A stretch of 64,000 bases of DNA from an uncultured bacterium (GTDB lineage Bacteria > Planctomycetota > UBA8108 > UBA1146). Below are positions 2,378 to 51,026 of the stretch, piece after piece. Made by a program: the position numbers and the translations under genes. The stretch covers positions 42,987-106,986 of the forward strand of contig CALJGL010000023.1 in the NCBI GenBank assembly GCA_938075155.1. Reading direction: 5' to 3'. Each line of letters starts with the position of its first letter. Within the stretch, counting starts at the first letter, position 1. Below the pieces are notes generated by a model. The model did no database searches and had not been told where the DNA came from. It saw only the letters and a program-made list of their open reading frames with translations.

Positions 2378-2875
2378 ATGTTGTCCGCTATAATTCCGGG
2401 ATTACCGTTGCTCCTTCATGGGCGATATTCCCCAGGATTATTGCTGTTCCTCTTTGGTACAGCGAGTTGGACCCTTCATGCCGCTTCTCATTTGAGAGTG
2501 GGAGGGGATCGACAGTTGTTTCTCGTGGTCAGTCTACTGGCAGGGATCAGCTGTTCTCTCGCGACATTGATATGGACATACCACTGGACTTCGAATGAGC
2601 GCATTGAGCAGACGAAACAAAGGGTAGAAGCGGCTCTCGACGAAGCACAAAGGTCTTATCTTCGTGGTCGTTTGGATCAAGCCAGGACTTCTCTCGATCA
2701 GGGATTGAAGCACGATTCTAGAGATATCGATCTGCTCTTTCTTGATTGGCAAGTCGCGCGTCGCATGGGGGATGATCCTCGTGCTCGAAGAAGTCGTAGA
2801 ATGCTCAGAAAATATGACCTAGAAGAGAAATGGCTCTGGGAAGTCCAGAGAGAGGAGCTCGTTCGTGGCCGATGA
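2378..2875 (+). CDS. Hypothetical small membrane protein. The longer ORF from 2144 would overlap thiE.
   Basis: Hydrophobic N-terminal half and a charged helical C-terminal half. The ORF ends overlapping the purM start. No recognisable family. Confidence 0.3.
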   Translation: MLSAIIPGLPLLLHGRYSPGLLLFLFGTASWTLHAASHLRVGGDRQLFLVVSLLAGISCSLATLIWTYHWTSNERIEQTKQRVEAALDEAQRSYLRGRLDQARTSLDQGLKHDSRDIDLLFLDWQVARRMGDDPRARRSRRMLRKYDLEEKWLWEVQREELVRGR

Positions 2876-3959
2876 TACACCCGTGGATGCTCGATCAAAA
2901 AAAGTCACATACAGAGATTCGGGTGTCGATATCGATGCCGGAAATGAAGTGGTCGACCGGATCCGTGAAGCTGTGCAGTCTACTCAGGATGATCGGGTGC
3001 TGGCAGGGTCGCATGGAGCATTCGGTGGATTCTTCCGACTGTTAGACAACGATGGGGGGCTCTTCGGTAAACCGATGAAAAACCCTATTCTTGTGGGAGC
3101 GACGGATGGCGTCGGTACCAAACTGAAAGTTGCTTTCAGTTGTGGGGTATTAGATTCAGTCGGAATCGATCTGGTCGCAATGTGTGTCAACGATTTGATC
3201 GTGGGCGGAGCACGTCCTCTGTTTTTCTTGGACTATGTCGCGACAGGGAAAATCTCTGCTGATGCGATCGCTACGGTGGTTGAAGGAATAGCCGAGGGCT
3301 GTCGTCAGAGTGGTTGCGCCTTGTTGGGTGGAGAAACTGCGGAAATGCCAGGCTTCTATAAGCCGGGTGAACTCGACCTCGCCGGATTCTCAGTAGGAGT
3401 TGTCGAGAAAGATGAAATCCTAGACGGCTCGACTGTTCGATCGGGTGACAAAGTCATTGGACTAGGATCCAGCGGCGTGCATTCCAACGGATTTTCTCTC
3501 GTTAGACGTGTCCTGATGGAAGGCCCTGGGGCTTTACCTCTCGACCAAGACCCCGCTGGGTGGGGTTGCACTTTGGGTGAAGAACTTTTGAAACCCACTC
3601 GTATCTATGTGAAGTCTTTGCTAGAGGTCTTGGATCAGGATCGAAGTGCTATTCATGCACTGGCCCATATCACTGGAGGAGGTTTGCTTGAAAACCTTCC
3701 TCGTGTTCTCCCTGAGGATTTATCGATTACCCTCCAGAGATCTTCATGGGAACGTCCTCCCATTTTTCAACTGATTGAAGAGAGAGGTCCTGTCGAAGAG
3801 TCAGAGATGGATCGAGTTTTTAATCAGGGCATTGGTATGGCTGTGATCGTGGCTGCAGATGAAGCGGAGAGACTGACAGAGCGGTTCCGTGAGTTGGGCG
3901 AAAAAGCGTGGATCATCGGTTCCGTGTGTGAGGGTGATGGAGTTCAAATTCTTCCCTGA
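2865..3959 (+). CDS. purM: Phosphoribosylformylglycinamidine cyclo-ligase (AIR synthetase)
   Basis: GVDIDAGNEVV, GATDGVGTKLKVA, GGETAEMPG. Length is as expected for PurM. Confidence 0.9.
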   Translation: MADDTPVDARSKKVTYRDSGVDIDAGNEVVDRIREAVQSTQDDRVLAGSHGAFGGFFRLLDNDGGLFGKPMKNPILVGATDGVGTKLKVAFSCGVLDSVGIDLVAMCVNDLIVGGARPLFFLDYVATGKISADAIATVVEGIAEGCRQSGCALLGGETAEMPGFYKPGELDLAGFSVGVVEKDEILDGSTVRSGDKVIGLGSSGVHSNGFSLVRRVLMEGPGALPLDQDPAGWGCTLGEELLKPTRIYVKSLLEVLDQDRSAIHALAHITGGGLLENLPRVLPEDLSITLQRSSWERPPIFQLIEERGPVEESEMDRVFNQGIGMAVIVAADEAERLTERFRELGEKAWIIGSVCEGDGVQILP

Positions 3960-13974: not shown

Positions 13975-14050
13975 TGGAGCTGGCGACGGGAGTCGAACCC
14001 GTGACCTCAGCTTTACGAAAGCTGTGCTCTACCAACTGAGCTACGCCAGC
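13975..14050 (-). tRNA. tRNA-Thr (anticodon CGU)
   Basis: Reverse complement reads GCTGGCGTAGCTCAGTTGGTAGAGCACAGCTTTCGTAAAGCTGAGGTCACGGGTTCGACTCCCGTCGCCAGCTCCA. Cloverleaf with 7-bp acceptor stem, TTCGACT T-loop, CGT anticodon, encoded CCA. Confidence 0.85.
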
Positions 14051-14180: not shown

Positions 14181-15098
14181 CTACGAAGTCGTGATTTCTG
14201 GGTCAGGAAGTTTGCTGTGGGGATGCTTTTGGTACTCCGCTGTCCGAGCCTCGCTGGTCAGGTGCCTGTATACCTGAGTGGTCGCGAGGTGCTTGTGACC
14301 GAGGAGCTCTTGAACTTCGCGAAGATTCGCTCCGCTATCCACCAAATGAGTGGCATAAGAATGCCTCAAAGTGTGAGGACTCGTTTTCTGATCTAAGCCG
14401 GCACGCCCGACATATCGATCAAAAATCTTGCGAATGGATCGGTCCGAAATTCGTTCTCCGAAACGATTGAGTAAAACAGGGACAGGGGCCCAGTTTCCAT
14501 TCTCTGGAATCCAGCGGGAGGGAATCGCTTCCCTGTAACTGATCAAAGATCGAATGGCATGTTCACCAATCGGTACGATTCTTTCCTTGCGACCCTTACC
14601 GAATGCTCGGACGAGGCGAATTTTGCTGTCGATATGGCACCAGTCGAGAGCCACAAGTTCACTCACCCTTAGTCCTGTACTGTAAAGGATTTCAAGGATG
14701 GCTCTGTCTCGCAATCCTCGATAAGTGTCGGTCTGGGGTTGGTCCAGTAATCGCATCACTTCCTGGATGGTGAGGAAGTGCGGGAGTGACCGCGGGACCT
14801 TTGGCGTATCCAGTTCGAGGAACGCGCAACGGCCTTCGAGTTTGTTTTCTCGTTGGAGAAACCGGAAGTAGCCCCGTACGGAAGCCAATTTACGGGCTAT
14901 CGTAGATCGGGAGTATCCCAGTTCTCCGAAGTGTGCAAGCCAGCGGCGCACCTCTTCGGTGCTTCTGGACACCAATTCCGAGAGATTATTAACTTGAAAG
15001 AACTCCTGAAGTTGCTCGAGATCTTTGCGATAGGCCCGGAGCGTCTCCGAACTTAGATTTCGCTCTGACTCGAGGTGCTGAAGGAATGAATCCATCAA
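14181..15098 (-). CDS. Tyrosine site-specific recombinase, XerC/XerD family
   Basis: N-terminal SAM-like domain (LESERNLSSETLRAYRKDLEQL). C-terminal catalytic HTLRHSYATHLVDSGANLREVQELLGHKHLATTQVYRHL with R..HxxR..Y. Confidence 0.85.
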   Translation of the reverse strand: MMDSFLQHLESERNLSSETLRAYRKDLEQLQEFFQVNNLSELVSRSTEEVRRWLAHFGELGYSRSTIARKLASVRGYFRFLQRENKLEGRCAFLELDTPKVPRSLPHFLTIQEVMRLLDQPQTDTYRGLRDRAILEILYSTGLRVSELVALDWCHIDSKIRLVRAFGKGRKERIVPIGEHAIRSLISYREAIPSRWIPENGNWAPVPVLLNRFGERISDRSIRKIFDRYVGRAGLDQKTSPHTLRHSYATHLVDSGANLREVQELLGHKHLATTQVYRHLTSEARTAEYQKHPHSKLPDPEITTS

Positions 15099-24319: not shown

Positions 24320-24397
24320 GGTGGGTGTAGCTCAGTCGGTTAGAGCGCCAGTTTGTGGTATTGGAGGTCGAGGGTTCGAGCCCCTCCTCCCACCCCA
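24320..24397 (+). tRNA. tRNA-His (anticodon GUG) with an encoded G-1 and CCA
   Basis: G-GTGGGTG-TA-GCTC-AGTCGGTT-AGAGC-G-CCAGT-TTGTGGT-ATTGG-AGGTC-GAGGG-TTCGAGC-CCCTC-CTCCCAC-C-CCA. The extra 5-prime G pairing with C73 is the tRNA-His hallmark. There is one U-U mismatch in the acceptor stem. Confidence 0.8.
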
Positions 24398-27609: not shown

Positions 27610-28797
27610 ATGCCAGGTTTACTGCTCCTCCTCTCTTTGGCGACGCTCTTGGAAGATCCCCTTCTGCCAGAACCTTGGCGAGGGAAAGCTCTTTCCTTGG
27701 CACGCTCGGATCTCAGAAATTCTGATTCGATATCAGGGAAAGAGTCTTTTCGTCGAGATCTTGGCGAGCTGCTTTTTTATGCGACGGGTTTCTCTGAGAA
27801 TCCTTCGAACTCTTGTGCTTCTTGCCACGACGCAGAGAGAGCTTTTCAAGACCAACGATCACATCCGAGAGGCCTCCAAGGAATCGCGCGTGATACTCCA
27901 AGTCTGTGGGGCGTTTCTGGGCAGCGTTGGTGGGGCTGGGACGGGCGTTGGGACTCATTGTGGGCACAAGCTCTGGAGCCGATTGAATCCGTAGATGAAA
28001 TGGGGGGAGATCGCCTCATGCTCCTTCGTTGGATCGACGAGGATGATCAGAGAAGAGATTTGTTTGAAAAAGGATTTGGTCCGTTGCCTTCTTTGGCTGG
28101 TCTGCCGGAGAAAGCACGTTCCGGTTCTGATTGGCATCCGGACTATCTTCTCGTTTCGAAGTCGAGGCGAAAAGAAATAGATTTGGCTTTCTCGAAAGCG
28201 GGTCGATCTATCGCGGCATTTGAAGCCACTTTGGAGGCTCCTCGATCGTCATTTGACGATTATATCGACGCATTGGCGACGTCGGATCTTCATAAAGCTG
28301 AACTGTATCCTGCGGAAGCACGAAGAGGATTGATCTTATTTTTGGATAAGGGGCGATGCATTCTCTGCCACGGAGGACCCTTACTTTCAGATGGGGAGTT
28401 TCACGACACGGGATTGCTGACTTCTGGAAGTTCAGGAAAAGACTCTGGCAGATATGGCGGAATTCTTGAATTGAAGTCGAACCCTTTCAATCTTGAAGGG
28501 CAATTCTCAACGGCTTCTGAAATGGAAGGAGCCGATCGGACAAGAAGGTTGAAGAGAGATCCCTCTGTTTGGGGGGCATTTCGAACCCCTTCATTGAGGG
28601 GGATCCGTCACACCGCTCCTTATTTTCATGACGGAAGTCAGAAAGACTTAAAGAGTGTGATTCGATTTTATACTCGCAGAGATGGGGCTCGGAAAAAGAG
28701 CCAGGCGGCCGGGCACCACGGTGAAAATTTGATGGAAGAGCTCAATTTCACTCCGGGTGAGGAATATTTGCTGGAACGATTTCTGGAGACATTATAA
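27610..28797 (+). CDS. Di-heme cytochrome c peroxidase (CCP/MauG family)
   Basis: Two CxxCH motifs (CASCHDAERAF, CILCHGG). CCP signature FRTPSLRGIRHTAPYFHDGS...VIRFY. Confidence 0.85.
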   Translation: MPGLLLLLSLATLLEDPLLPEPWRGKALSLARSDLRNSDSISGKESFRRDLGELLFYATGFSENPSNSCASCHDAERAFQDQRSHPRGLQGIARDTPSLWGVSGQRWWGWDGRWDSLWAQALEPIESVDEMGGDRLMLLRWIDEDDQRRDLFEKGFGPLPSLAGLPEKARSGSDWHPDYLLVSKSRRKEIDLAFSKAGRSIAAFEATLEAPRSSFDDYIDALATSDLHKAELYPAEARRGLILFLDKGRCILCHGGPLLSDGEFHDTGLLTSGSSGKDSGRYGGILELKSNPFNLEGQFSTASEMEGADRTRRLKRDPSVWGAFRTPSLRGIRHTAPYFHDGSQKDLKSVIRFYTRRDGARKKSQAAGHHGENLMEELNFTPGEEYLLERFLETL

Positions 28798-34059: not shown

Positions 34060-34508
34060 ACCCCAATTTCTTCAATTCAACTTCAGTATTCAAATGCGGT
34101 AATATTTCAATGATCCATGCATTTGAATGTTTAACAATTGGGACTGGTTTATCCGTATAGGTGCCCGGAAATGCCTTCCTAGTGGCATTGGCCGCTTTTT
34201 TGTATGCCCGGAATATGCTTGAGTTGTCTTAATGTATTGTTAATATTGCGTTATTAGTCATTCGGTTTGTAGGGATATTGTAAGCCTGCATGTTAGTCGA
34301 TTGGGTGGCTGAAACGCATTGGCACAACGACGATAGCGGAGTTTCTACGACTCTGATTCGTCCTAAATTCCCCAACTTCGTTTGGGGAGAAATGGCTTCA
34401 GCGAGCCATCTGGGAGGAGACGAAATGTCAGATCTTCACATGAAGTCTGTACACACTGTTTCTAAGAGATTCGAATCCAAAGAATCTTGGCAGGGCAGTG
34501 ACGTCAAA

Positions 34509-37500
34509 ATGGTATTGCTCACATTATTCACGGTCTTTGTAATGGGCTACTGTAGCCCGGCGCTTGAGGCTCAATCAGATCCTGTCCCGCCGGCAGCTCC
34601 AACAAACCTCGAATGCATCGTTGAAGTGGCGCATTTGGAACTTTCTTGGACGAATACGGGCGAATACGATCAGATTCTGATTCGTCGTAACGGAGTCCTC
34701 CTAGAGTATCTCAATGGTTCTTCCACGAGTTACCTCGATATGGACGTCCCTGCCAATTTCCACCTTTATTCCGTTCATGGAATGACGACGGGTGCAAATG
34801 GTCAGGCTGAGGGTGTGGGAGCAGAGTGTTCTGTCTTCCTTATTCCGCCTCCCATCGAGCCAGGATTAGAAGTTCCTGCAGCGCTGAATTTCTTGCCCAT
34901 TCCCCTGCCCGACAATCTCTTCGACTTTATTGCTGATCCTGATATGGCGATTGCTTTGGGTAAGGCATTCTTCTGGGATATGCAGGCAGGATCTGATGAT
35001 CAAATCGCTTGTGCGACATGCCATTATCACGCCGGAGCTGACAACCGTAGAACTCATCAGTTGTACAACGGTCACAATGAAATTTTTGACCTGACTGTTG
35101 CAAACGAACGTCTTACTGCAACTGATTTCCCGCTCCATAAGCTGGCAAACCCGAATGATAATACGTCTGCTGTATTACAGAGTGTCGATGACACCATAGG
35201 GTCTTCAGGAATCTTGCATTCAAATTTCCTCTCTCTTACAGAGGACGCCAATGGAGTTGTTGGTGAAGAAATCGTCAGTATTGAAAATGCAGATAGCATC
35301 AAGGTCAATTCAGACGGTACGCAGGTACAAATGCGTAATGTCACAGACAGGAACGCTCCCTCTGTGATCAACTCCATCTACTTCCTTGAGACCTTCTGGG
35401 ATGGAAGAGCGTCTTTCTGGTTCAACGGAAGAGACAACTGGGGTCCGAGAAACCCCGATGCCTTTGTCTACAAGGTTCAGCCAGGTGGAACAGTGACTCA
35501 GGAAAAAATTCTGCTCGATAAAGCCTCATTGGCTTCTCAGGCTGCTGGTCCGATTCTGAGTGGCAACGAAATGTCTGCCCATGGACGAGACCTTCTTAAG
35601 GTTGGCAAAAAGTTGCTGAGCAGAGAGCCTTTGGCGACTCAAACAGTACACCCTAATGATAGTGTTCTCGGAGGAATGAGTGACGCTACAGACGGAAAAG
35701 GACTCGGTGAGACGACCTATCAGGAATTGATTCAATCTGCTTTTGTGACATCCTGGTGGGCGAGTGATCAGCTCTTCGGACCTGATCTTCAGCCTCTTAC
35801 AGATGTCGATGGAAACCTTCTCACTGGTGTTCCCAATGGCGTTGATCAGTTTTCAATGATGGAAGTCAACTTCTCCCTCTTCTGGGGATTGTCCATCATG
35901 ATGTATGAGTCCACCCTAGTTTCGGAAGACTCTCCTTACGACCGTTGGTGGAGAGCTACGAGAAATCCCGCGGATCCAAATGGCGACATTAATGCTCTCA
36001 GTTCTTTGGAGCATGAGGGAATGTCTGTCCTCGCCGGTTCAACCTGCATGTTCTGTCATACGACCTCTCTTTGGTCCAGTGCTGGAACCAGCAAGATTTT
36101 AACCGTACTCGAGCCAGAGGCTTCAGAGATCGAAGCTCTATTAGAGCGCATGCCGATGAGGGATATGCAACTTTCGGTCTATGATGGCGGATTCTACAAC
36201 CTTGGAGTGACTCCAACAGTTGAAGATATTGGTCGTGGTGGTATTGATCCATTCGGGCATAGTTTCTCGATTGTGAGAACGTTCCAAGAGAAAGCAAATA
36301 TTCCCAACTTGGATGATGACGGAGACGGCATTCCAAACGGAGCTGACCCCGATTTCATTGCTCATGATTTTCAGCCGTTTGCTGATCATGTTCTAGTTGT
36401 CACTCCTCCTCCTGCTCCTTGGGAAGATACGAACATGGATGGCATGTTCAAGACTCCCTCATTGCGAAACGTTGAGTTGACGGGACCATACTTCCACAAC
36501 GGAGGTGCTGGAACCCTTGAGCAAGTGGTGAACTTCTATGCACGCGGAGGAAACTTCGTTGACACAAACCTCGATACATTAGCTCCTGAAATGATCCCGC
36601 AGCCATTCCTCTCTATTAATGAGCAGAGGAAGTTGGCCATGGTGGCATTCATGGAATCACTGACAGATGACAGGGTTCGTTGGGAAAAAGCTCCTTTCGA
36701 TCACCCTGAAATCAGAGTTCCAGAAGGCGCGCTCGCGAGTGATCTCAATGGAGATGTGATCGCCGGCACGAATACCGTGGCTATCGATCGATTCAAGACA
36801 GTTCCTGCAGTAGGTGCTGAAGGTCGAAGTGTAGAGACTGATTCTGCCGGTCGTCCTCTTGATCCTCTGGTGAAGTTTCTTCAGCCAAGGACTGTCAAGG
36901 ATCTCTCATGCGTTCAGACTGGAGAATCGGTAACGATGTCTTGGCTTCCGCAGGAGTTCCCCAACGACGCTTCAACAAGTTTTAAGATTCTAAGAAACAA
37001 TCAAGTCGTTGCAGTTCTGCCCGAAACGGCAGCAAGCTTCACTGACGATTCGATTCCTCCGGGTGAGCATCAGTACACCGTTCGAGGTGAAGACGCCCAT
37101 GAAGGTTTCAATGCACATTGCACGGTCCTGGTGAACCCACCAGCACCTGTTGATCTGTCCTCGAATGTGAACGTGAATCAGGTGAGTTTGCAGTGGACAA
37201 ACCCCTGGCCTTACCACTCCATCGATATTTTCCGCGATGGCGTAAAAGTGGGTGATCAGTTAGCCGGTACTACTGAGATCTTTGTTGATGGCGGCGTGCC
37301 TGCTGGTCATCACTCCTACGAAGTTGTCGGAAGAATTCTGTCGATCGTTTCGGGTAATCTCATCTTCAGTGAACCTGCAATCGTTGGAGCCGACCGTCAT
37401 CCTCTCGCTGCACAAATCTTGGGCTGTACTTCAGTCGCAATGGGACAGAATGAGGTGACTTGGGGTAATACGGAGCCCTATGACTCACTGCGTTTGCTTC

Positions 37501-39176
37501 GCAATGGAACATTGATCAGTGAACTGGATGGTCAAGCATCGTCCTACCTCGATACCACCTCTTTACCGGGTGAGTCGAACTACTCGTTGATTGCAACAGT
37601 TTCCGGACTGGATTCGACTGAGTCTGGCTGTCTTGTGCAGCGTGCGCCACTTCCTGTGGAGTCACTCAGCTGTGATAACAATGGCGGGATCGCCGTGTTG
37701 TCTTGGGTGAATCCGGAGCCGTGGGAGCAAGCTGAAATCTATCGGGACGGTCAACTGATCAATATTTTGACTCAGATCCAAAATACCTATCAGGATGATT
37801 TCCTGACAAACTCTGGTTCTGGTCTTCACAACTACGTCATCAAGACTTACTTCGACGGTCTGACCTCAGGAGAAAACTCCTGTGGAATCTTGGTTGCACC
37901 GACTCCGGTCGTCTTGTTCGAGTGCGAGCCCCTCTCGGGTGGTGTTCTGCTTTCTTGGACCAATACAGATACTTACGACCAGATTCAGATCATGAGAGGC
38001 AGTGAGCTTCTGGTGAATTTGGGTGGTGGGTCAACTCAGACCTTCGATGGTCAAGTCGCCAGTGGTGCAGTGATTTACACACTGACGGCTTCTAGAGACA
38101 ACATTACTGCAAGTTCTGTCCAGTGCATGGTGACTATTCCTTCAGCACCAGTTTCAGATCTTGCTTGTTCAGATAGCGCTGGAGGCATCCAGCTTTCATG
38201 GACGAATGCCGACAACTATTCCACGATCGATATTCTTCGAAATGGATCTGTGGTAGACACCATCGCTGGTGCATCAAGTTCATACCTCGATAGTGCCGCC
38301 GGTGGTGGAACCTCGTTGTATCAGGTTGTTCCCAGCAGTAACGGAGTTGCTTCAGGCCTCTCCAACACCTGTGGCGGATCGATGGCACCGCTGCCCATAA
38401 CAGGGTTGCAAGGTCAGTTGATCGAGAACTGTCAGGGAGATGTGCTCTTGAGTTGGAGTAACGCGGAGTCTTACGATTCCATCCGCTTAGAGCGTAACGG
38501 TATTCCTGTAGTGACCTTGGCTGGATCTCAAACTGAGACAACGATCGACGTGGGTGCCCATGGGTTTTACGAGCTTGTGCTTGTTCCAGCGATGGACAAC
38601 ATTGATGGCCCCGCTGTGAGTACCAGTGTTGATTATGTTGCTGAAGTGGTTTCTGCGCCCACCGGATTCTCTGGAAGTGTCGATTCCGATACTTGTCAGG
38701 CGACTCTCTCTTGGTCAAACCAGGGGACTTACTCTCAGATTCAGATTGTTTCTGCAGGAGAAGTTCTGAGCACGCTTGCCGGTGGAGTGAGTTCCGCATT
38801 GATCAATCTTCCTGGTGCTGGTGGATACGTCCTTGATTTGGTCGTTATCGGAGAATGTGGCACTCAGGCGAGTTCCGCCGATTCTGTCGCTCTTGATTGT
38901 TCCGTGAGATTCCTACGAGGCGATCAAAATGGAGACGGAAGTCTGGATATCTCTGACCCGCTCTCATTACTCGGATTCATGTTTGGTGCCGGAGAAGTGA
39001 CCTGTGAGGACGCTTCTGACGCCAACGATGACGGTAATATCGACGTTTCTGACGCTGTACGCATGCTTCAGTACCTCTTTGGAGGGGCCAGCATACCAGC
39101 GCCGATAAACGGCTGTGGAGTCGATCCGACCGCTGATGGGTTGGGTTGTGAGCAGGGAGATCCGAGCTGCTCCTAG
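34509..39176 (+). CDS. Giant secreted protein of about 1555 aa: N-terminal di-heme cytochrome c peroxidase-like domain, an array of about ten ~85-aa Fn3/Ig-like modules, and a C-terminal dockerin-like module. The ORF track begins at 34290; Met at 34509 gives a signal peptide.
   Basis: Signal peptide [22 protein letters not shown]. CxxCH x2 ([16 protein letters not shown]) and CCP signature [31 protein letters not shown]. Repeating LSWTN....YD.I.I.RNG modules. C-terminus [23 protein letters not shown]...[22 protein letters not shown]...[12 protein letters not shown]...C. Confidence 0.75.
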   Translation: [1555 protein letters not shown]

Positions 39177-41981: not shown

Positions 41982-44900
41982 GTGAACACCATGTTCAACA
42001 TTAACGAGAAAGAAACAAAGAGGAGAGGTTGGATGATCGCGAATGCGCTCATCATAACAATCTTTCTTGGTTCAGTTCTTTCCTCGACCAATGTCGAGGG
42101 ACAGATAGCAAATGTACCGCAGCCAACTTCAGAGTCGGTAGTAGTCCTCGGTGAGATCGAGAACATCTTCGTCGATGACATGGATGACATGTTCTCTGCG
42201 GGCTGGATTGTTGCAGACGGAGTAGCGGTCAGGATTCCAAGTGGATTACTGATAGACCTCCCTGCTAACCGTCTTACCCTCAGGGATCTCATGGCAGGTG
42301 CGTCACCGGAATGTCTTGCTAATGGAGAGTCCGGGTTGGCGAGCACTGATGAGTGTCTTCGTAATAAGAGCCTCCAGGGTGGTGGTGCGCAAATCCTTGC
42401 AAACCGTTTACAAGATGGATCTGTCATCGCTGGAGACGTCTTTTTGAATAAATCGATGACGGGTAACGTCGCTGGAGGAATCGTTCCTCCAACCGTCGGC
42501 GGATACGTTTCATACATCAATTTCCAAGACGGTTACTTTGTCGTCAATGGTTCAATGAATGAGCGTCCGTTTGCAGATGGCGGACCCGATAAGCGTGGTG
42601 TGATCTGTCGTATTAACGACCCAGAGACACGTCAAACGATTCAGAGCGGCTTAGGCTGTATCACTGGAATGCCAAACTGTAGTCCAGATCCACGATTCAC
42701 TATCGATCCGGATAACTACAGTTGGACGTTTGGAACTGGATACCCAGTGTGTATTCCAAGTACGGATAACACATCGGGTGAACGTGATGACGACAGTGGT
42801 GCGAACATTCTCACCGGTGCCGGTGACGAATTCTGCCCAATGTGGAATCGCAACTTTGAGGGACCACTGAATAGAACTGTGCCTGACTCGACCTTCTTTG
42901 TTCCTCTGGCAGTGGGTGATCCCATTGGTATTGAAGGAAACTTCGAAGTGATCAACGGCGTAAGATTCTTCTCCTCGTATGGAGGAATGGTTCAACTTGG
43001 TCTGAAGACCAAGAATGAAAATGATCAGCCAGATTACATGATTTATGACGAGGTTGAGGGCGACGTTCCTCCCTTTGACAATGCTAGAATCAAATCATTG
43101 GCTATCTGTTTCACAACAATAGATGACATGCATGTGAACCTTTACAAGATGCATAAAGATCCTTCCACGGGAAATGACATCGAGTACATCTGGGGAACTT
43201 CCCTCGGAAATCTCGGAGCCAGATTTAATGGAATCCCGCCTAACGCTGGTGGAATCAACAAGGTCGAATACGATCTAGATTTCCTTCTCGGAGCTCCCGC
43301 AGCTCACGGTCCATGTTTGAATCTCATTAATGGTGGTTTCAATGTCTGCCCTCAGGGTGGAACGATGGAAGAAGAAGTGGCTCTCATGAGCCCTACTTCG
43401 AGAGAAGTTGTGGGCCGTACACTGCATAGCATGTCTCTGAATCCGGGTATTTTCCCCAGAGATATTCTTGGCTTCGAAGCCCAGCATGGAATGTACATTA
43501 CTCCACAAGGTCAGGGACACCCTGAGTTTGTAGAGATCAATCTCGATAAGAACGGCTGGCCATTCATCTTCGAAGGAATGCCTTGGAACTTGGATCGACG
43601 TCTTGGCCCTGGTGGTTGTGACGAAGATGCAGGGTGTGAAAACCTTGCAACTAATCCGGTTGGAAGTTTTCCTCTTACTCCATTCCCTTCAGCGGGTGAC
43701 CCCGATTGGGTATCTCACTCCATCGGTAATGGTATTCCACCGTTCGCTTCGCAAAGAATGACAGCATTTCATCCCTTTGGAGAAAATGACTTTATGCAGC
43801 CATTCTCGGATATACCGGGACCTAATCCAGCACTGCCTGCAGGGCTGTCGGATGGATTAACGGCTGAACATTGTGATATTCCAAACGATATGCCATTGGC
43901 GATTCAGGATTCTCTGAGTGCAGATGAAGACCAAGTCGCAATGATTTCAGACCAGGATTTGCTACTGAATGATTCTGATCCGGATCTCGACCAACTTAGC
44001 CTATTCCATTACGAGTCAACAAGCTTGAATGGCGGTACGATTCAAAGAATAGGGGCTGGACTGGTTTATCAGGGAGCGCCTGATTTCAATGGTAGTGACG
44101 AGTTCCACTACAGTATCACTGATAATCATGGTGGAACCTCACGTGGAAAAGTCTTGGTTATCGTTGCTGCAAAGAACGATGCGCCTGAGGCTCACGCCGA
44201 TTTCTTGACTCCTCCAAGTGACATTTACACATTCCAGGCCGAATTATTGTTAGACAATGACAGTGATGTCGATGGTGACACGATCACATTAGTTTCGATA
44301 AATGAATCTGTGAGCGGGTCCTCTGGAACAATGACAACTAACGCAGATGGAACGTTCACTTTCACTTCAGACCTGAATAGCACGGGTCCCAGTGTTTGGG
44401 ATTACACCATTTCAGATGATCTTGGCGAAACGGCCTCTTCCACATTAACTTTCTATGTGGGTAACCAGGCACCGGTAGCGTCAGATGATAATGTTGTTAC
44501 TGACGAAGACGTCGAATTGGTGATCAATGCACTTAGTGGTGATTCCGATCCAGATGCCAACGATACCCTCGAAGTGGTGTCTACTGGATCTGCTTCCTTT
44601 GGTAGCGTCGAAAATCTGGGTGGTGGATTACTGCTGTACACTCCAGACCTTGATCAGTTTGGGAGCGACGCTTTTTCCTACACGATTACTGACGGTAAGG
44701 GACTTTCTTCAACAGCTACGGTAAACGTATCTGTACTTCCTGTGAATGACGCTCCAAGATTGGGCGCTGATATTGCAGTAACACTTGAAGACCAGCCTGT
44801 TCAGATAAATGTTTTGAATAATGATTATGATCCTGAAGGCGATGCCATGACGGTATCTCTGCCGATCATCAATGCGTTCAACGGTAGTGTTGAGTTACTT

Positions 44901-46478
44901 CAGGGTGGCGTGATTCGATTCACTCCATTCCCCGACATGTCTGTTGGAGTTGCAGATAACTTCATGTACATGGTCACTGACTCAAATGGAGCTTCCTCTT
45001 CAGGAATGGTTTCCATCGAGGTGACACCGGTCAATGATGCTCCTATTGCGAATCCGGATACTGCAGTGACACTGGAAGACATTCCAACATTGGTCAATGT
45101 ATTGGCGAATGATGGAGACGTCGATAACGATCTCCTAAAGGTGATGTCTGTGGATGTCCCAGCAGATTTCCCTGCAGTGGTAACCTGGCAGACCAACGGT
45201 TCGATCGGGATCAGTCCTCATGCGGACTACAATGGAATCACTCCGAGTACCTTCACGTACATTCTTTCAGACGGATTCCTCACCGATCAGGGTGTGGTCA
45301 GTCTGCAAGTGCTCTCGTTGAATGACGCTCCGGTTGCAAACGATGATTTTGGTCATCAAGTGACTGAGGACGGCTCGGTAACTGTGGATGTTCTTGCCAA
45401 TGATACTGACGTCGATGGAGATACTCTTCAGTTAGCCTCAACTACGAATGGACTGTTGGGTCTGGCCGCTATCACGATTGATGGCAGAGTCTCTTACACA
45501 CCATTCCCCAATGCGAATGGTTTCGATAGCTTTACTTACACCGTGACTGATAACGCTGGTGGACAATCTTCTGCCACTGTTGAAGTTGAAATCCTCGCAG
45601 TGAATGACGCTCCCGAAGCAGGAGTATTGCCAATCTTCCCTCTTCCCGAGGATAGTTTGAAAACGTTCACGGCACTTTCAATCCTGCAGCAGGCCTTCGA
45701 TGCAGATGGCGATTCACTCGTTCTGACAAACATCGGGGAACCCGCAAATGGACAAGTCACGATTTCAGTAGATACGCAAGCAAACATCTCGTCGCTGATT
45801 TACGTTCCTAACCCGGACTTCAATGGAATCGATGAGTTTACGTATGAAGTATCTGATATTGCTTCCTCTGGAGCAGGCATCGTTCGCATGAACGTTCTTC
45901 CTGTCAACGACCTGCCTGTTGCAAATAATGACTCAGGTATTCTTGTCGAAGGTGGAACCAGCATCTCGATCGCACCTCTGCTCAATGACGTAGATGTCGA
46001 TGGCGATTCATTGTCTCTGCTCGGTATTATCAGTGGTCCTTTCCACGGGTCGATGCAGATCAATACGGATAATGGCACCCTGACATACAATGCTGACAGT
46101 AACTGGGACGGTGAAGATTCCATGATTTATAGAGTCACGGATAACCATGGTGGAATGGCAACGGCGAGTATCTTGATCGATATCACGCAGGCCACTTCAG
46201 CTGCTGCTTCCATGATTCGCTCCGATGCCAACGTCGATGGACAGTTGGACGTCTCTGATCCGGTGGAAACCATTATCCACTTGTTCCAGGGTCGTGGAGT
46301 TGCATGTCTTGCAGCATTGGATGCCAATGACGACGAACAGATCGACATTGCTGACGTGGTGTTCTCGCTGAGTGGATTGTTCGCTAACGGACAACTTCCA
46401 GCTGCTCCATATCCGTTCTGTGGTCAGGATCCCACTGATAACTTGCTCCCATGTGACGGTTTTGGTCTTTGCGACTGA
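41982..46478 (+). CDS. Giant secreted adhesin-like protein (1498 aa): paralogous N-terminal domain, about 10 cadherin-like/VCBS-type modules, and a C-terminal dockerin-like module
   Basis: Signal peptide. Repeated VNDAP...D.DGD modules. C-terminus SDANVDGQLDVSDPVETIIHLF...DANDDEQIDIADVVFSLSGLF...PYPFCGQDPTDNLLPC...C. Confidence 0.75.
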   Translation: MNTMFNINEKETKRRGWMIANALIITIFLGSVLSSTNVEGQIANVPQPTSESVVVLGEIENIFVDDMDDMFSAGWIVADGVAVRIPSGLLIDLPANRLTLRDLMAGASPECLANGESGLASTDECLRNKSLQGGGAQILANRLQDGSVIAGDVFLNKSMTGNVAGGIVPPTVGGYVSYINFQDGYFVVNGSMNERPFADGGPDKRGVICRINDPETRQTIQSGLGCITGMPNCSPDPRFTIDPDNYSWTFGTGYPVCIPSTDNTSGERDDDSGANILTGAGDEFCPMWNRNFEGPLNRTVPDSTFFVPLAVGDPIGIEGNFEVINGVRFFSSYGGMVQLGLKTKNENDQPDYMIYDEVEGDVPPFDNARIKSLAICFTTIDDMHVNLYKMHKDPSTGNDIEYIWGTSLGNLGARFNGIPPNAGGINKVEYDLDFLLGAPAAHGPCLNLINGGFNVCPQGGTMEEEVALMSPTSREVVGRTLHSMSLNPGIFPRDILGFEAQHGMYITPQGQGHPEFVEINLDKNGWPFIFEGMPWNLDRRLGPGGCDEDAGCENLATNPVGSFPLTPFPSAGDPDWVSHSIGNGIPPFASQRMTAFHPFGENDFMQPFSDIPGPNPALPAGLSDGLTAEHCDIPNDMPLAIQDSLSADEDQVAMISDQDLLLNDSDPDLDQLSLFHYESTSLNGGTIQRIGAGLVYQGAPDFNGSDEFHYSITDNHGGTSRGKVLVIVAAKNDAPEAHADFLTPPSDIYTFQAELLLDNDSDVDGDTITLVSINESVSGSSGTMTTNADGTFTFTSDLNSTGPSVWDYTISDDLGETASSTLTFYVGNQAPVASDDNVVTDEDVELVINALSGDSDPDANDTLEVVSTGSASFGSVENLGGGLLLYTPDLDQFGSDAFSYTITDGKGLSSTATVNVSVLPVNDAPRLGADIAVTLEDQPVQINVLNNDYDPEGDAMTVSLPIINAFNGSVELLQGGVIRFTPFPDMSVGVADNFMYMVTDSNGASSSGMVSIEVTPVNDAPIANPDTAVTLEDIPTLVNVLANDGDVDNDLLKVMSVDVPADFPAVVTWQTNGSIGISPHADYNGITPSTFTYILSDGFLTDQGVVSLQVLSLNDAPVANDDFGHQVTEDGSVTVDVLANDTDVDGDTLQLASTTNGLLGLAAITIDGRVSYTPFPNANGFDSFTYTVTDNAGGQSSATVEVEILAVNDAPEAGVLPIFPLPEDSLKTFTALSILQQAFDADGDSLVLTNIGEPANGQVTISVDTQANISSLIYVPNPDFNGIDEFTYEVSDIASSGAGIVRMNVLPVNDLPVANNDSGILVEGGTSISIAPLLNDVDVDGDSLSLLGIISGPFHGSMQINTDNGTLTYNADSNWDGEDSMIYRVTDNHGGMATASILIDITQATSAAASMIRSDANVDGQLDVSDPVETIIHLFQGRGVACLAALDANDDEQIDIADVVFSLSGLFANGQLPAAPYPFCGQDPTDNLLPCDGFGLCD

Positions 46479-46557: not shown

Positions 46558-46774
46558 CGAATAGATCTCTGTAGGGGATACTAAATTGATGAATTTCGGA
46601 CTTTGACGGGTTATTGCTGCAATATCTTGCAGATCTAACTTGTTATTAGTTGTTTGAGATTCTTCACATTTTTTACGAGATTTCGTAGGATGTTATACTT
46701 CAACAGCAGATGGATCCCTGCTTCTGAGGGAGTCCGAAGATTTGCACGTCACTTTAGAGGAAGAGGCAGAGTCG

Positions 46775-47872
46775 ATGATTTTAAAATTGTTCTATGGTTC
46801 TTCAAGCCTAGGGCGAGCCGCCCTCATGGTTGCGCTGGGAATATTGCCACTTGCAGCATTGGGTTTGAATCACGATCCGTTATCAGGACAAGTACCGGGT
46901 TCCCCGCGTATCGAGTGTGATAATCCACTTGTTGAATGGGGAGAGCTTATCAAGGAAACCCCATTCACCCATGAATTCGAAATTAAGAATACGGGTGACG
47001 AGGTCTTGATCATTCAAAAAGTTAACGGCACCTGAGGTTGCACGGTCGCCGATCACGACGACCAAATCCCCCCCGGTGGGGTGGGAAAAGTTTCAGTAAC
47101 TCTCGATACAAAAAAGGTTCGGGGTAAAGGTGTCGCCAAGAACTTGAAGGTATTCTCCAATGATCCGGTGAACCCTGAATATACTTTGACTTTGAAAGGG
47201 ACGATTCTCGAAATCCTCGAAACCCGTCCTCTTCAACTGAAGTTGCTAGGGCTTGCTGGTACCGCCCTCAATGGAAGTTTTACTTTCAACGCGGGATCAC
47301 CGCTGGATGTAGAGATCACAGAGATACGATCCGCAGGAAAGCGTGTGACGGCGTCAGAGCCTGTCGTGCAAGAGGCCGGGCGGTCCTTTGAGATCACCCT
47401 GGACGCTGCACCCAATAACAAGCCTGCGATTCTGAGAGAAAAGCTATATCTGGACGTGAAAACAAGTGACGGAGTTGATCGTACTCTTGAATTTAATGTT
47501 CAGATTGACCACCGGGACCGCATCGTTCTTCAACCCAAGAACAACATCAAGTTCATGGACAAGGAGACGAAGGGACTGCTCAAGGATGGTTCTCCAATTG
47601 AGAAGAGTATTCTCGTAACAGGAGGAGACCCTTCAATTCAATTTGAGGTGACTGGTGTTGCTTTGGACGATCGTATTAAGGATGCATTCAGTACCAGAGT
47701 TCAGGAAGTTGTTCCTGGCAAGAGCTATCGTGTTTGGATCAAGTTGTCAGAATACCAGTCGACGCCAACGGTTCTTGGCAAGATGACGATTCAAACAAGC
47801 GACGAGATGAAAAAAGAGATCTCTATCTGGGTGATGGGCCAGTTCCCGCAGAAACGCCAAACTGCACCCTGA
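46775..47872 (+). CDS. DUF1573-domain secreted protein, a single reading frame interrupted by one in-frame TGA at 47036-47038. It is either a selenocysteine codon or a disrupted gene. The ORF track splits it into 46742-47035 and 47081-47872, which share one frame.
   Basis: Signal peptide MILKLFYGSSSLGRAALMVALGILPLAALG. DUF1573 signature region EIKNTGDEVLIIQKVNGT-[TGA]-GCTVA...IPPGGVGKVSV. The TGA sits where the family has the first Cys of its conserved CGC motif. Confidence 0.5.
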
Positions 47873-47900
47873 TGGTGTTTTAATTTTTCGTTGTTCAATA

Positions 47901-47947
47901 AATGAGCCTGCCACCCTTCATCGGTTGGCAGGCTCATTTGTTTCTCT
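47901..47947 (+). terminator. Rho-independent terminator after the DUF1573 gene
   Basis: 13-bp perfect stem aatgagcctgcca / tggcaggctcatt followed by a T-rich tail. Confidence 0.7.
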
Positions 47948-48171: not shown

Positions 48172-50127
48172 ATGTTATTTTTGGAGAACTCGATGAAGTT
48201 CACTAGTGCTCTGGTGGGAAGATCTTATCTATGGCTGCTTTTCGTCGCATGCCTCCTAGGCGATGGACGTGAATCCTACGCCCAATTTCAAATTAGCAGT
48301 CCTGTTCCCACTTCTGTTGGTATCACAATTGCGGCCGCGGTTATATCGGACGTCACAGGTGATGGCATTGTAGATCTGTGTTCTATCGATGCCGGTGGCC
48401 AAATTGTAATTGCTACAGGGTTTGGCGATGGGGTTCATGGAGAAATCCAATCCTTCGACTATGGAGCTGGCATCGATGGTCTTGTCAGAGCGATCGCTGC
48501 TGGTGATTTGGATGCAGACGGAGACGAAGATCTTGTCTTTACGTGGTCTCATCCTCTTGGCGTGGGAGGATTTCTCTCGATAGTGCCCTTTGAGTTAGGA
48601 ATCCCGGGTAGTCGAATTGATTTCTCTCTTGATCAACAAGTCAACCGCACCCCATTTGATATTGAGGTGGGGGATTTGAATCAGGATGGTCGCCTTGATT
48701 TAATCGCTGGTACAAACATTCTTGACCAGGCGTTTCAGCCGGCCTATGTATCTGTGCTTATGGGTGATGCTGCTGCAATACCGGGAGTGATGTCATTTGA
48801 AACTCCGGTGCACTATTTCAGGTCTTCGATGGTTAGGGATGTCCATTTGGAGGACCTTGATGCAGATGGTGATCATGACGTCATCATGACTTGTAGAGGC
48901 GGGAATAGCCTTTCAGTTTTCGAGAATGTCGGCGCAGGAATACTCACATTCGCTTCAGAAACATTATTCCCTCTATCGCCTGAACCCTATGCGGTGAAAA
49001 CAACCGATCTTGATGGAGACGGTGTCATGGATATTCTCTTGGGGACATGGCAGACGAAATCCCTGATCCCATTGTTGGGCTTGGGAAACCTTCAATATTC
49101 TCGTCAAAACGAGATTGAATTGGGGCAATTGGGTTGGGGGGTGATGCACCGATTCGAACTTGAAGATATGAATGGAGATGGCCACCTTGATGCCGTTGCT
49201 CCTTTCTCAAGTGGAGTGATTTCTATCCACTATGGAGATGGAGAAGGGGATTTTGAACCCGGGCCTTTCTTTGTCACTTATCAAAGTGCCAAGTCTCTGT
49301 GGTTTCATGATCTGGATAATAGTGGAACTCGGGAGATGGTTTTAGAGCATACTGATCTGAAGCTCTTTACGACATTCTTTGGAGCTTTTGAATTGCGAGG
49401 GCATGTCTATTTTGATTCCCAAAGAATTCCGGCAGGTCTGGAGTCTGATCTGGTTCTTAAAGGGATCGCAAACCTTGGAATCAGAGGGATTGATACTGCC
49501 ATCGATATTGATAGAGCCCTCTTGATCCCATTGGATTTAGTACCCTCTCAAGCTGTCATGTTGGCCACTGGAGGGCTTGGCCCGGATTTTTGGTCCGTAG
49601 ACCTCGGGGTAAATCCTCAGGACCCTGTGACTCTCAGTTCGATTCTTCAGGGAAATGGTCAGGGTGGATTGGGTGCTGGGCTGATCAATGAGGTTGCGAT
49701 TCTTGGAGTGCAGACTGCTTCTCTTTCGAATCCAATACAGACGACGATAGCTCCTGCTCCTTTGAGTATCGGTGGCCCAACGCTCTCCTTGACTGGTGGC
49801 ATATCTACCTCTGTGAATGCAGGTACTGGCTGGTTGGATATTGAAGTACCCAAAAGGTTTGTTCGAGGAGACGTGAATCAGAATGGTGACGTTAATGTGG
49901 GAGATGCCGTCATTCTATTGAGAAGACTCTTTGGATTGGATTCTCCGGGACAGTGTCTTGCAGCCGAGGATGCTGACGGAGATGGAGCGACTGATATTGG
50001 TGACGCGGTTCGAATTCTGACCTACTTGTTCTCTAGTGGAATCCCTCCCGTTGAGCCATTCCCAGGGTGTGGTTTGGCAGCTGACCCATTACTCATTGAA
50101 TGTGAATTTCATTCCTACTGCCCATAA
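48172..50127 (+). CDS. Secreted FG-GAP/VCBS-repeat (integrin-alpha-like beta-propeller) protein with a C-terminal dockerin-like module
   Basis: Signal peptide. FG-GAP Ca-binding loops (DLDADGDEDLVF, DLNQDGRLDLIAG, DLDADGDHDVIMT, DLDGDGVMDILLG, DMNGDGHLDAVA). C-terminus RGDVNQNGDVNVGDAVILLRRLF...EDADGDGATDIGDAVRILTYLFSSGIPPVEPFPGCG...C...C. Confidence 0.75.
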   Translation: MLFLENSMKFTSALVGRSYLWLLFVACLLGDGRESYAQFQISSPVPTSVGITIAAAVISDVTGDGIVDLCSIDAGGQIVIATGFGDGVHGEIQSFDYGAGIDGLVRAIAAGDLDADGDEDLVFTWSHPLGVGGFLSIVPFELGIPGSRIDFSLDQQVNRTPFDIEVGDLNQDGRLDLIAGTNILDQAFQPAYVSVLMGDAAAIPGVMSFETPVHYFRSSMVRDVHLEDLDADGDHDVIMTCRGGNSLSVFENVGAGILTFASETLFPLSPEPYAVKTTDLDGDGVMDILLGTWQTKSLIPLLGLGNLQYSRQNEIELGQLGWGVMHRFELEDMNGDGHLDAVAPFSSGVISIHYGDGEGDFEPGPFFVTYQSAKSLWFHDLDNSGTREMVLEHTDLKLFTTFFGAFELRGHVYFDSQRIPAGLESDLVLKGIANLGIRGIDTAIDIDRALLIPLDLVPSQAVMLATGGLGPDFWSVDLGVNPQDPVTLSSILQGNGQGGLGAGLINEVAILGVQTASLSNPIQTTIAPAPLSIGGPTLSLTGGISTSVNAGTGWLDIEVPKRFVRGDVNQNGDVNVGDAVILLRRLFGLDSPGQCLAAEDADGDGATDIGDAVRILTYLFSSGIPPVEPFPGCGLAADPLLIECEFHSYCP

Positions 50128-50190: not shown

Positions 50191-50769
50191 CTAGGCGCGA
50201 AGTTCGCTTCCAGCTAGGCGCACTACTCGACGAGCGAGTTCTTCCGGGTCAAAAGGTTTGGCGAGAATGTCGTCGGCACCCAAGAGGCGGGCTCTGTCCA
50301 ACTCGGCTTGCTCCATGGCACTGATCACCAAAATCTTGGTCTTGCTCAGTTCTGGGGCGAGTCTGACATATTCAATGACGTCGAATCCACCTAGACCAGG
50401 AACTCGAAGATCGAGTGTCATCACGCATGGGAGGTGCTCTCTCAAGAGTGATCCCGCAGTGAAGCCATCCTGAGCCATGAATACATCAAAGTTATGTTTT
50501 CTCAGGGTGATTTCGATGGCTTTGGAGACGGTGGGTTCTTTCTCGACGACGAGTACTCGACGCGCGAGGTGCAGGAAATCTCTCGGAATGGGAATGTTGT
50601 TTTCCCTTAGAAACGAGATGAAGTTGCTGATTTCGACGCGGTTATCTCCACGACCGGGCAGCTGATATGCACGTAGCTGACCACGCTGAATCCAGCGAAT
50701 AACTGTACGAAAGTTTACGCCGCAATAACTGGCGATTTCTCCCGTAGTAAGGGTTCTCTTATCGTTCAT
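50191..50769 (-). CDS. Response regulator with reversed architecture: N-terminal MerR/excisionase-type HTH and C-terminal receiver domain. The ORF track extends to 50814; the start at 50769 has a GAGGAG SD 7 nt upstream.
   Basis: HTH in LTTGEIASYCGVNFRTVIRWIQRGQLRAYQLPGRGDNRV. Receiver-like C-terminal half (VLVVEKEPT..., VMTLDLRVPGLGGFDVIEYV, KILVISAMEQ, DDILAKPFDPEEL) with a conserved Asp in TLDLRVPG and K in AKPF. Confidence 0.7.
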   Translation of the reverse strand: MNDKRTLTTGEIASYCGVNFRTVIRWIQRGQLRAYQLPGRGDNRVEISNFISFLRENNIPIPRDFLHLARRVLVVEKEPTVSKAIEITLRKHNFDVFMAQDGFTAGSLLREHLPCVMTLDLRVPGLGGFDVIEYVRLAPELSKTKILVISAMEQAELDRARLLGADDILAKPFDPEELARRVVRLAGSELRA

Positions 50770-51026
50770 CCCACACTCCTCGCACATTACTCTACCTCGG
50801 TTAACAAATTTCAACTCGCAATGAAATTTGTAGTGAAGTCGGAAATCCCAATTGTCGTAACTGATTGATTGGGTGCAGGTTCCGGCTTCTCTTGTAAATC
50901 AACTATACACATATTGTATGTTTGTTAGTCATTTTGTCAATAGTTAGGAATGTCTATATCCGGTCCTGCAGTCCCGATTGGCCAAAAAATACCGGAGTGA
51001 ACTCAAGTTCTTTATGTGTGTCTTAA

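Follow-up and report, generated by a model that had tools for sequence, protein, structure and literature searches.

We examined a 64-kb stretch of contig CALJGL010000023.1 from an uncultured planctomycete (the whole stretch is called the window, and positions count from its first letter). It carries a gene for a DUF1573 protein that is divided by an in-frame TGA, a candidate selenocysteine (Sec) codon, and the nucleotides (nt) behind this TGA form a candidate bacterial Sec insertion sequence (SECIS). The following features lie at the locus:

46775..47872, + strand: putative DUF1573/OS_HP2 selenoprotein coding sequence, 365 codons including Sec, a single frame with one internal TGA
46775..46864, + strand: predicted N-terminal signal peptide or membrane anchor, residues 1-30, MILKLFYGSSSLGRAALMVALGILPLAALG
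46913..47206, + strand: DUF1573 immunoglobulin (Ig)-like domain that contains the candidate Sec codon, residues 47-144, Pfam PF07610
46916..46918, + strand: an extra cysteine (Cys) codon, TGT (Cys48), 100% conserved in 28 distinct orthologue sequences
47033..47035, + strand: in-frame TGA, the presumed Sec codon (Sec87) of a U-G-C motif, as judged from orthologue conservation and Cys alignment
47036..47086, + strand: candidate bacterial SECIS region; synonymous variation is suppressed over these 17 codons
47039..47041, + strand: TGC codon for Cys89, the partner Cys of the U-G-C motif, invariant in all orthologues and in distant homologues
47044..47063, + strand: hairpin 1, GGUCG.CG-AUCA-CG.CGACC, -9.2 kcal/mol, 9-28 nt after the TGA (RNAalifold)
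47067..47085, + strand: hairpin 2, UCCCCCCC-GGU-GGGGUGGG, -13.3 kcal/mol, kept in all orthologues
47870-47872, + strand: TGA, the gene's own stop

The open reading frames (ORFs) 46742-47035 and 47081-47872 lie in the same frame, with no stop between them except the TGA at 47033-47035, as a first-pass annotation of this DNA had recognized. That annotation had placed the TGA at 47036-47038, 3 nt downstream of its actual position, because the ORF end at 47035, which includes the stop, was taken as the last sense base. The sequence around the site is GTT AAC GGC ACC TGA GGT TGC ACG GTC GCC GAT CAC GAC GAC, translated as VNGT-*-GCTVADHDD (with Q as the next residue), and the tryptic peptide across Sec87 would be VNGT-U-GCTVADHDDQIPPGGVGK. 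The start of the protein, previously set at 46742, also had to be revised. ATG 46775 and the hydrophobic segment after it are common to all orthologues, public gene callers start at this ATG too, and TTG 46742 is missing from the close relative L023; the true start is therefore most likely ATG 46775 and not TTG 46742. The N-terminus is basic and then hydrophobic in all orthologues, with the sequence itself divergent, which is consistent with the signal peptide that had been suggested. Pfam matching of the read-through product, with Cys written at the TGA, returned one PF07610 match (residues 47-144, E 4.4e-20, profile positions 2-98 of 98). This single match runs across codon 87, so the proposal that the two ORFs make up one DUF1573 protein held. 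The DUF1573 domain additionally matched a HYDIN/VesB-like Ig domain (9e-9).

We retrieved 40 orthologous loci from marine Planctomycetota metagenome-assembled genomes (MAGs) and metagenomes. These loci come from independent marine assemblies and share 56-98% protein identity with the window protein, and 39 of them span the TGA site. An orthologue alignment at this site was the check that had been set beforehand. The results showed that TGA occupies the same alignment column in 40/40 sequences (the 39 site-spanning loci and the window itself), with no Cys codon among them. Moreover, an identical 263-amino-acid (aa) C-terminal ORF was found on 19 contigs (Logan, ENA, NCBI), and the six that were inspected all carry the TGA within an identical 90-nt context; three of these six are 99.8-99.99% identical to the window across 14-21 kb. 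A sequencing or assembly error at the TGA base is a general possibility in metagenome-derived sequence, and nothing more specific speaks for it. Six contigs that were assembled independently, by different pipelines and from different samples, share the TGA and its 90-nt context, and every orthologue has the TGA; the probability of such an error is thus negligible.

One of these orthologous loci, L011 (QNYK01000094.1), is titled 'Bacillota bacterium isolate MAG 7' and carries a Planctomycetota-type orthologue with the same TGA and the same element; this contig or its bin is probably mislabelled or mis-binned.

Substitution patterns were then compared on the two sides of the TGA. Outside the RNA element, the proportion of synonymous differences (pS) was saturated between lineages (0.65-0.9), and the proportion of nonsynonymous differences (pN) was 0.08-0.42 upstream of the TGA and 0.07-0.25 downstream. 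The ratio of nonsynonymous to synonymous rates (dN/dS) was 0.03-0.38 where computable, and no further stops or frameshifts were found in either gene half among the orthologues. These values indicate that both sides of the TGA are under purifying selection. Recent inactivation, in which a TGC/TGT to TGA point mutation would have made a pseudogene, needs only a single-base change in a Cys codon, and gene callers do split the gene into products of 86 aa and 263 aa. However, the TGA stands in 40/40 sequences while pS is 0.65-0.9, dN is low relative to dS in both parts, and neither part has acquired another stop or frameshift. A pseudogene would not remain intact across such divergence, so we rejected this explanation as extremely unlikely. 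Because the TGA is fixed, both halves are selected and synonymous sites are saturated, the point mutation and the sequencing error that the first-pass annotation had listed as alternatives are both contradicted, by the orthologues as well as by the six contigs.

We also considered whether TGA has been reassigned as a sense codon. TGA is the commonest stop in the window, where it ends 15 of the 32 long ORFs, including the DUF1573 gene itself, and reassignment was rejected on this ground. A scan for other read-through ORFs with an in-frame TGA found none with a redox motif or a split domain.

The TGA falls at a defined position of the DUF1573 domain. In 26/26 distant full-length homologues, which match the protein in their three-domain length, a Cys within a T-C-G-C-T motif stands in the TGA column. 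The earlier proposal that the TGA replaces the first Cys of a conserved C-G-C motif therefore stands, and the motif here would be T-U-G-C-T. The codon for Cys89 is TGC in every orthologue, and the synonymous TGT was never seen. With Cys written in place of Sec, the protein also passed the NCBIfam model NF041425, 'OS_HP2 family (seleno)protein', with 101.2 bits against a cutoff of 100 (E 3e-29), a narrow pass in which residues 55-144 match profile positions 8-97 of 98. The OS_HP2 family was defined computationally, and a literature search on DUF1573 found no functional study.

OS_HP2 goes back to 2007, when Zhang and Gladyshev defined it as one of six selenoprotein families, new at the time, from the metagenome of Olavius symbionts (PMC1976440). 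The Global Ocean Sampling survey listed it under pfam07610 with the motif UxC, 2 Sec sequences and 354 Cys homologues (PMC2398784), and reviews of 2022 and 2026 include a 'DUF1573 domain-containing protein, UGC' as a selenoprotein (PMC9312934, PMC13188914). The gene described here resembles this family in that Sec would replace the first Cys of C-G-C in a PF07610 domain (U-G-C, or UxC), stem-loops follow directly after the UGA, Cys-type homologues are numerous, and the sequences occur in marine metagenomes. It differs in several respects. The founders of OS_HP2 come from deltaproteobacterial symbionts of Olavius, whereas the present clade belongs to pelagic marine Planctomycetota; two more Ig-like domains and the extra invariant Cys48 are present in the protein; and the gene carries a two-hairpin element and is fixed in its position, with a large secreted adhesin-like gene on either side. 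This kind of selenoprotein is thus already known, while we found no description of the planctomycete clade, its misannotation or the two-hairpin element.

The closest comparison among the Cys-type proteins is with three-domain DUF1573 proteins such as P0017, P0018, P0022 and P0026. They are likewise about 340-360 aa long, start with an N-terminal signal, and carry a DUF1573 domain with two Ig-like domains behind it and T-C-G-C-T in the same column. Unlike the window protein, they have Cys and not Sec, share only 23-26% identity with it and lack Cys48. This residue lies 39 positions before Sec87 and is invariant in the TGA clade only; the Cys-type homologues mostly have Phe, or another hydrophobic residue, in its column. 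Cys48 might lie buried in the protein core, or it might serve as a third redox or metal ligand.

Public records treat the locus as two genes. On all six contigs whose public gene calls were inspected (L041-L046), the gene is split into 86 aa and 263 aa. The 16 closest database homologues (P0001-P0016, 53-98% identity) without exception comprise only a C-terminal piece, about 213-277 aa long, as expected of a gene caller that stops at the conserved TGA, and the orthologues are named 'hypothetical protein' or truncated 'DUF1573 domain-containing protein' in NCBI. One could take these calls at face value and suppose a true stop at the TGA, with a separate start or re-initiation at GTG 47081, just past hairpin 2, giving an 86-aa peptide and a 263-aa protein. 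Two such products would cut the DUF1573 domain in the middle of its beta-sandwich, and the 15 codons between TGA and GTG (GCTVADHDDQIPPGG) are among the most conserved of the protein and include the family-invariant G-C-T. In addition, the downstream starts called by gene callers differ between orthologues, which argues that no downstream start is conserved. We consider a two-product gene very unlikely, and conclude that the selenoprotein is systematically misannotated in the public records inspected. The practical value of the result lies here, in annotation, as the inspected records of the gene are wrong.

We next turn to the nucleotides that follow the UGA. Synonymous diversity per codon over codons +1 to +17 was 0.13, compared with 0.39-0.57 in the other 18-24-codon blocks examined, so that these codons hold about one-third to one-quarter of the flanking synonymous diversity. 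Pairwise pS in 47036-47086 was 0.08-0.24 for most pairs, against the 0.65-0.9 of the flanks. The third positions that do vary within the element lie at unpaired or wobble-tolerant sites: codons +1 and +10 are unpaired, codon +7 (CAC/CAU) gives a G-C or a G-U pair, codon +14 provides the third loop base of hairpin 2, and codon +17 lies just beyond the stem.

RNAalifold consensus folding of 16 distinct orthologue sequences gave the two hairpins, which together reach -22.5 kcal/mol. The hairpin GGUCG...CGACC that the first-pass annotation had drawn 9-28 nt after the TGA does exist (GGUCG-CCGAUCACGA-CGACC in 47044-47063); that annotation had missed the second, stronger hairpin at 47067-85 with its GGU loop. 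In hairpin 1, the inner pair is G-C, G-U or A-U among the orthologues and never a mismatch; L002 and L003 change it from G-C to A-U and have the loop GUCA, and L022 has two compensatory pairs. Hairpin 2 consists of four C-G pairs, a mismatch or bulge, and three or four more pairs. Its apical loop GGU (47075-47077) starts 39 nt after the UGA, or 38 nt when the closing C-G is counted in the loop; both G are invariant in the 16 distinct sequences, and the third base is U, C or A. In L020 and L021 the middle of hairpin 2 is rewritten in a compensatory manner (GAGCCC/GGGCUU), and in L022 the C.U mismatch has become U-A. In total, six pairs of the two-hairpin structure are changed on both sides, compared with a mean of 1.2 in column shuffles; 0/500 shuffles reached six pairs, and slid controls gave 0-1. 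The covariation support for the two hairpins is real but not deep.

Published bacterial SECIS (bSECIS) criteria allow a closer comparison. bSECISearch looks for an upper stem of 4-16 base pairs (bp) capped by a loop of 3-9 nt, a UGA-to-loop distance of 16-37 nt and a minimum free energy (MFE) of at most -7.5 kcal/mol (PMC13188914), and for a G in the first two loop positions, following the pattern N1-G-[G|U]-N-N2 (PMC13188914). Some genuine bSECIS elements fall outside this model (PMC13188914). Hairpin 2 agrees with it in loop size (3 nt), in its stem and in the loop G (C-G-G-U-G). The stem of hairpin 1 above a 1x1 internal loop is just 2 bp, and the AUCA loop, which starts 16 nt after the UGA, lacks a G at either of its first two bases, except for the GUCA of L002 and L003. 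The energies of both hairpins (-9.2 and -13.3 kcal/mol) are below the MFE limit. The tentative suggestion that hairpin 1 might serve as the SECIS therefore holds for its position and energy and fails at the apical loop, where the G is found in hairpin 2 instead.

Measured against the consensus bSECIS, with E. coli fdhF as prototype, the element is similar in lying inside the coding sequence directly 3' of the UGA as a stable stem-loop, and hairpin 2 is similar in its small apical loop that starts with G and then G/U (C-GGU-G) and in an energy well below -7.5 kcal/mol. It differs in that the G-containing loop is 38-39 nt and not 16-37 nt from the UGA, and in that the expected loop position (16 nt) is held by the conserved AUCA hairpin. 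The element thus appears bipartite. We tentatively raise the idea, which we hold to be doubtful, that it represents a distinct bipartite class of bacterial SECIS in pelagic Planctomycetota, with a SelB-type loop beyond the consensus range. If true, this would mean a SelB/ribosome geometry, or a coaxially stacked two-helix fold, unlike the E. coli paradigm. Even as a well-conserved natural case just outside the consensus bSECIS, the two-hairpin element could refine SECIS predictors.

A covariance model of the 56-nt element, run unfiltered over the window, found no second credible copy. The only other match with E < 0.01 was 28233-28288 (+) (19 bits, rough E 5e-4); it starts with TTG, lacks a TGA and lies out of frame inside the di-haem peroxidase-like ORF 27610-28797, and was rejected as a chance match.

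Several observations weigh against a Sec codon served by this element. Only three or four diverged lineages (L002/L003, L020/L021 and L022) contribute compensatory changes, and the conserved peptide GC[TL]VADHDDQIPPGGVG could explain part of the nucleotide conservation. Hairpin 2 lies outside the 16-37 nt spacing (38-39 nt) that hairpin 1 has (16 nt), and neither hairpin alone combines all four bSECIS properties. Rfam gave no SECIS match, either for the window at the gathering threshold or for 46950-47200 at E up to 10. Since the bacterial SECIS models in Rfam are each made for particular protein families, little weight attaches to this null result. Finally, tRNA and protein-family scans found no selA, selB, selD or tRNA-Sec within the window, and the fetched loci contain no tRNA genes, thus no tRNA-Sec, and no selA, selB or selD either. 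The only tRNAs in the window are those for Thr and His, and a protein of AIR-synthase fold at 2865-3959, tried as a SelD candidate, is PurM. Full Sec machinery and selenoproteins have been documented in other Planctomycetes (PMC4807772). Since the TGA is conserved and selected, we infer that this lineage decodes Sec and would have the machinery for it.

The same observations bear on UGA read-through without Sec, in which a near-cognate or suppressor tRNA would insert Trp, Cys or Gly under stimulation by the hairpins. In other systems, read-through can be promoted by stable structures that lie 3' of a stop codon; here, the downstream structure deviates from the consensus bSECIS, and the scans of the window and the fetched loci did not locate Sec machinery, all of which counts in favour of such a mechanism. 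However, the position of the UGA is exactly that of a redox-type Cys in a CxC motif, as is characteristic of Sec/Cys exchange; the family is already established as one of selenoproteins and has a curated model; SelB-binding loops typically have a G-G/U motif, which is present in the distal loop; and TGA acts as an ordinary stop elsewhere in the window. Read-through without Sec is very unlikely on this evidence. In contrast, the conserved TGA, the selection on both sides of it, the alignment with Cys, the synonymous constraint and the NF041425 pass all agree with the selenocysteine reading of the first-pass annotation, and we put the probability that TGA 47033-47035 codes for selenocysteine, in a DUF1573 protein that is secreted, at roughly 0.9.

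Based on these sequence comparisons, we propose that the approximately 51 nt after the UGA would fold into a bacterial SECIS during translation. Hairpin 2 (47067-85, C-GGU-G loop) is the likelier SelB site and would recruit SelB.GTP.Sec-tRNA(Sec), hairpin 1 (47044-63) would act as a conserved accessory or spacer, and Sec would be inserted at the UGA in place of termination. The gene would then be intact and expressed, and its product, a three-domain Ig-like protein, would be exported by means of the N-terminal signal or anchor.

To obtain a view of the protein, an AlphaFold2 model was made with a 27-sequence alignment. The model (mean pLDDT, predicted local distance difference test, 86.6) has three tandem Ig-like beta-sandwich domains; residues 1-38 are of low confidence and unstructured, and Sec87 is placed in a turn before strand 89-94. 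A sequence search of the PDB found no relatives, only chance matches with E > 0.1. Foldseek against the PDB gave only generic tandem Ig, HYDIN/ASH and cadherin folds and the uncharacterised P. gingivalis protein 2qsv, with no catalytic clue. Judging from the facts of the locus and the chemistry of UxC/CxC motifs, we suggest with modest confidence an exported protein whose Sec-Gly-Cys pair is redox-active or binds soft metals: the U-G-C pair may be a redox centre that forms a selenenylsulfide, or it may be a ligand site for a soft metal. With this result, a selenoprotein family that has been little studied reaches into an abundant group of marine Planctomycetota, and Sec biology as known is left unchanged.

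The gene is followed by a further element, and its neighbours keep a conserved order:

47897..47942, + strand: terminator-like hairpin with a 17-bp stem and GUUUCU behind it, -30.7 kcal/mol (z-score relative to shuffles, -6.9)
41982-46478, 48172-50127 and 50191-50814 (also 34290-39176): neighbours of the DUF1573 gene in the conserved gene order

The terminator-like hairpin begins 25 nt past the stop of the DUF1573 gene and was missed by a simple terminator scan owing to its larger loop. It is probably an intrinsic terminator, which would mark the 3' end of the DUF1573 gene transcript.

Throughout the clade (L002, L008, L013, L016, L020 and L022), in every orthologous locus inspected, the gene order is a giant cadherin-like/Big_9 gene, the DUF1573 gene, an FG-GAP/dockerin gene and an opposite-strand response regulator. 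The secreted neighbours end in a dockerin-like stretch and a Cys-rich tail (P-F/Y-P-x-C-G-x-D-P...L-P-C...C), and an NCBIfam scan of these C-terminal tails returned no specific model. As a weaker possibility, the U-G-C protein with its Cys48 may act on the Cys-rich C-terminal modules of the flanking adhesin-like proteins. The context of the Cys-type homologues differs from that of the Sec clade. In two unrelated genomes (L047, carrying P0026, and L048/L049, carrying P0017), the Cys-type gene adjoins a Mur ligase gene that is transcribed divergently, and prfA, for a class-I release factor (PCRF/RF-1 domains), lies close by; this Mur ligase and RF-1 context gave no functional lead for the Sec clade.

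Other features of the window were recorded as well. Its 25-58 kb part encodes mostly very large secreted repeat proteins (NHL, dockerin, cadherin-like, He_PIG). Two window proteins, at 27610-28797 and 34290-39176, have di-haem cytochrome c peroxidase (CCP_MauG) domains, and one of them is a secreted giant of 1628 aa, with a dockerin-like tail and a rhamnogalacturonan-lyase-like domain in addition. As for the two tRNA genes, tRNA-Thr(CGU) (13975-14050, - strand) lies about 130 nt from a XerC-type tyrosine recombinase gene (14181-15098, - strand), and tRNA-His(GUG) (24321-24397, + strand) stands in an 880-nt intergenic gap.

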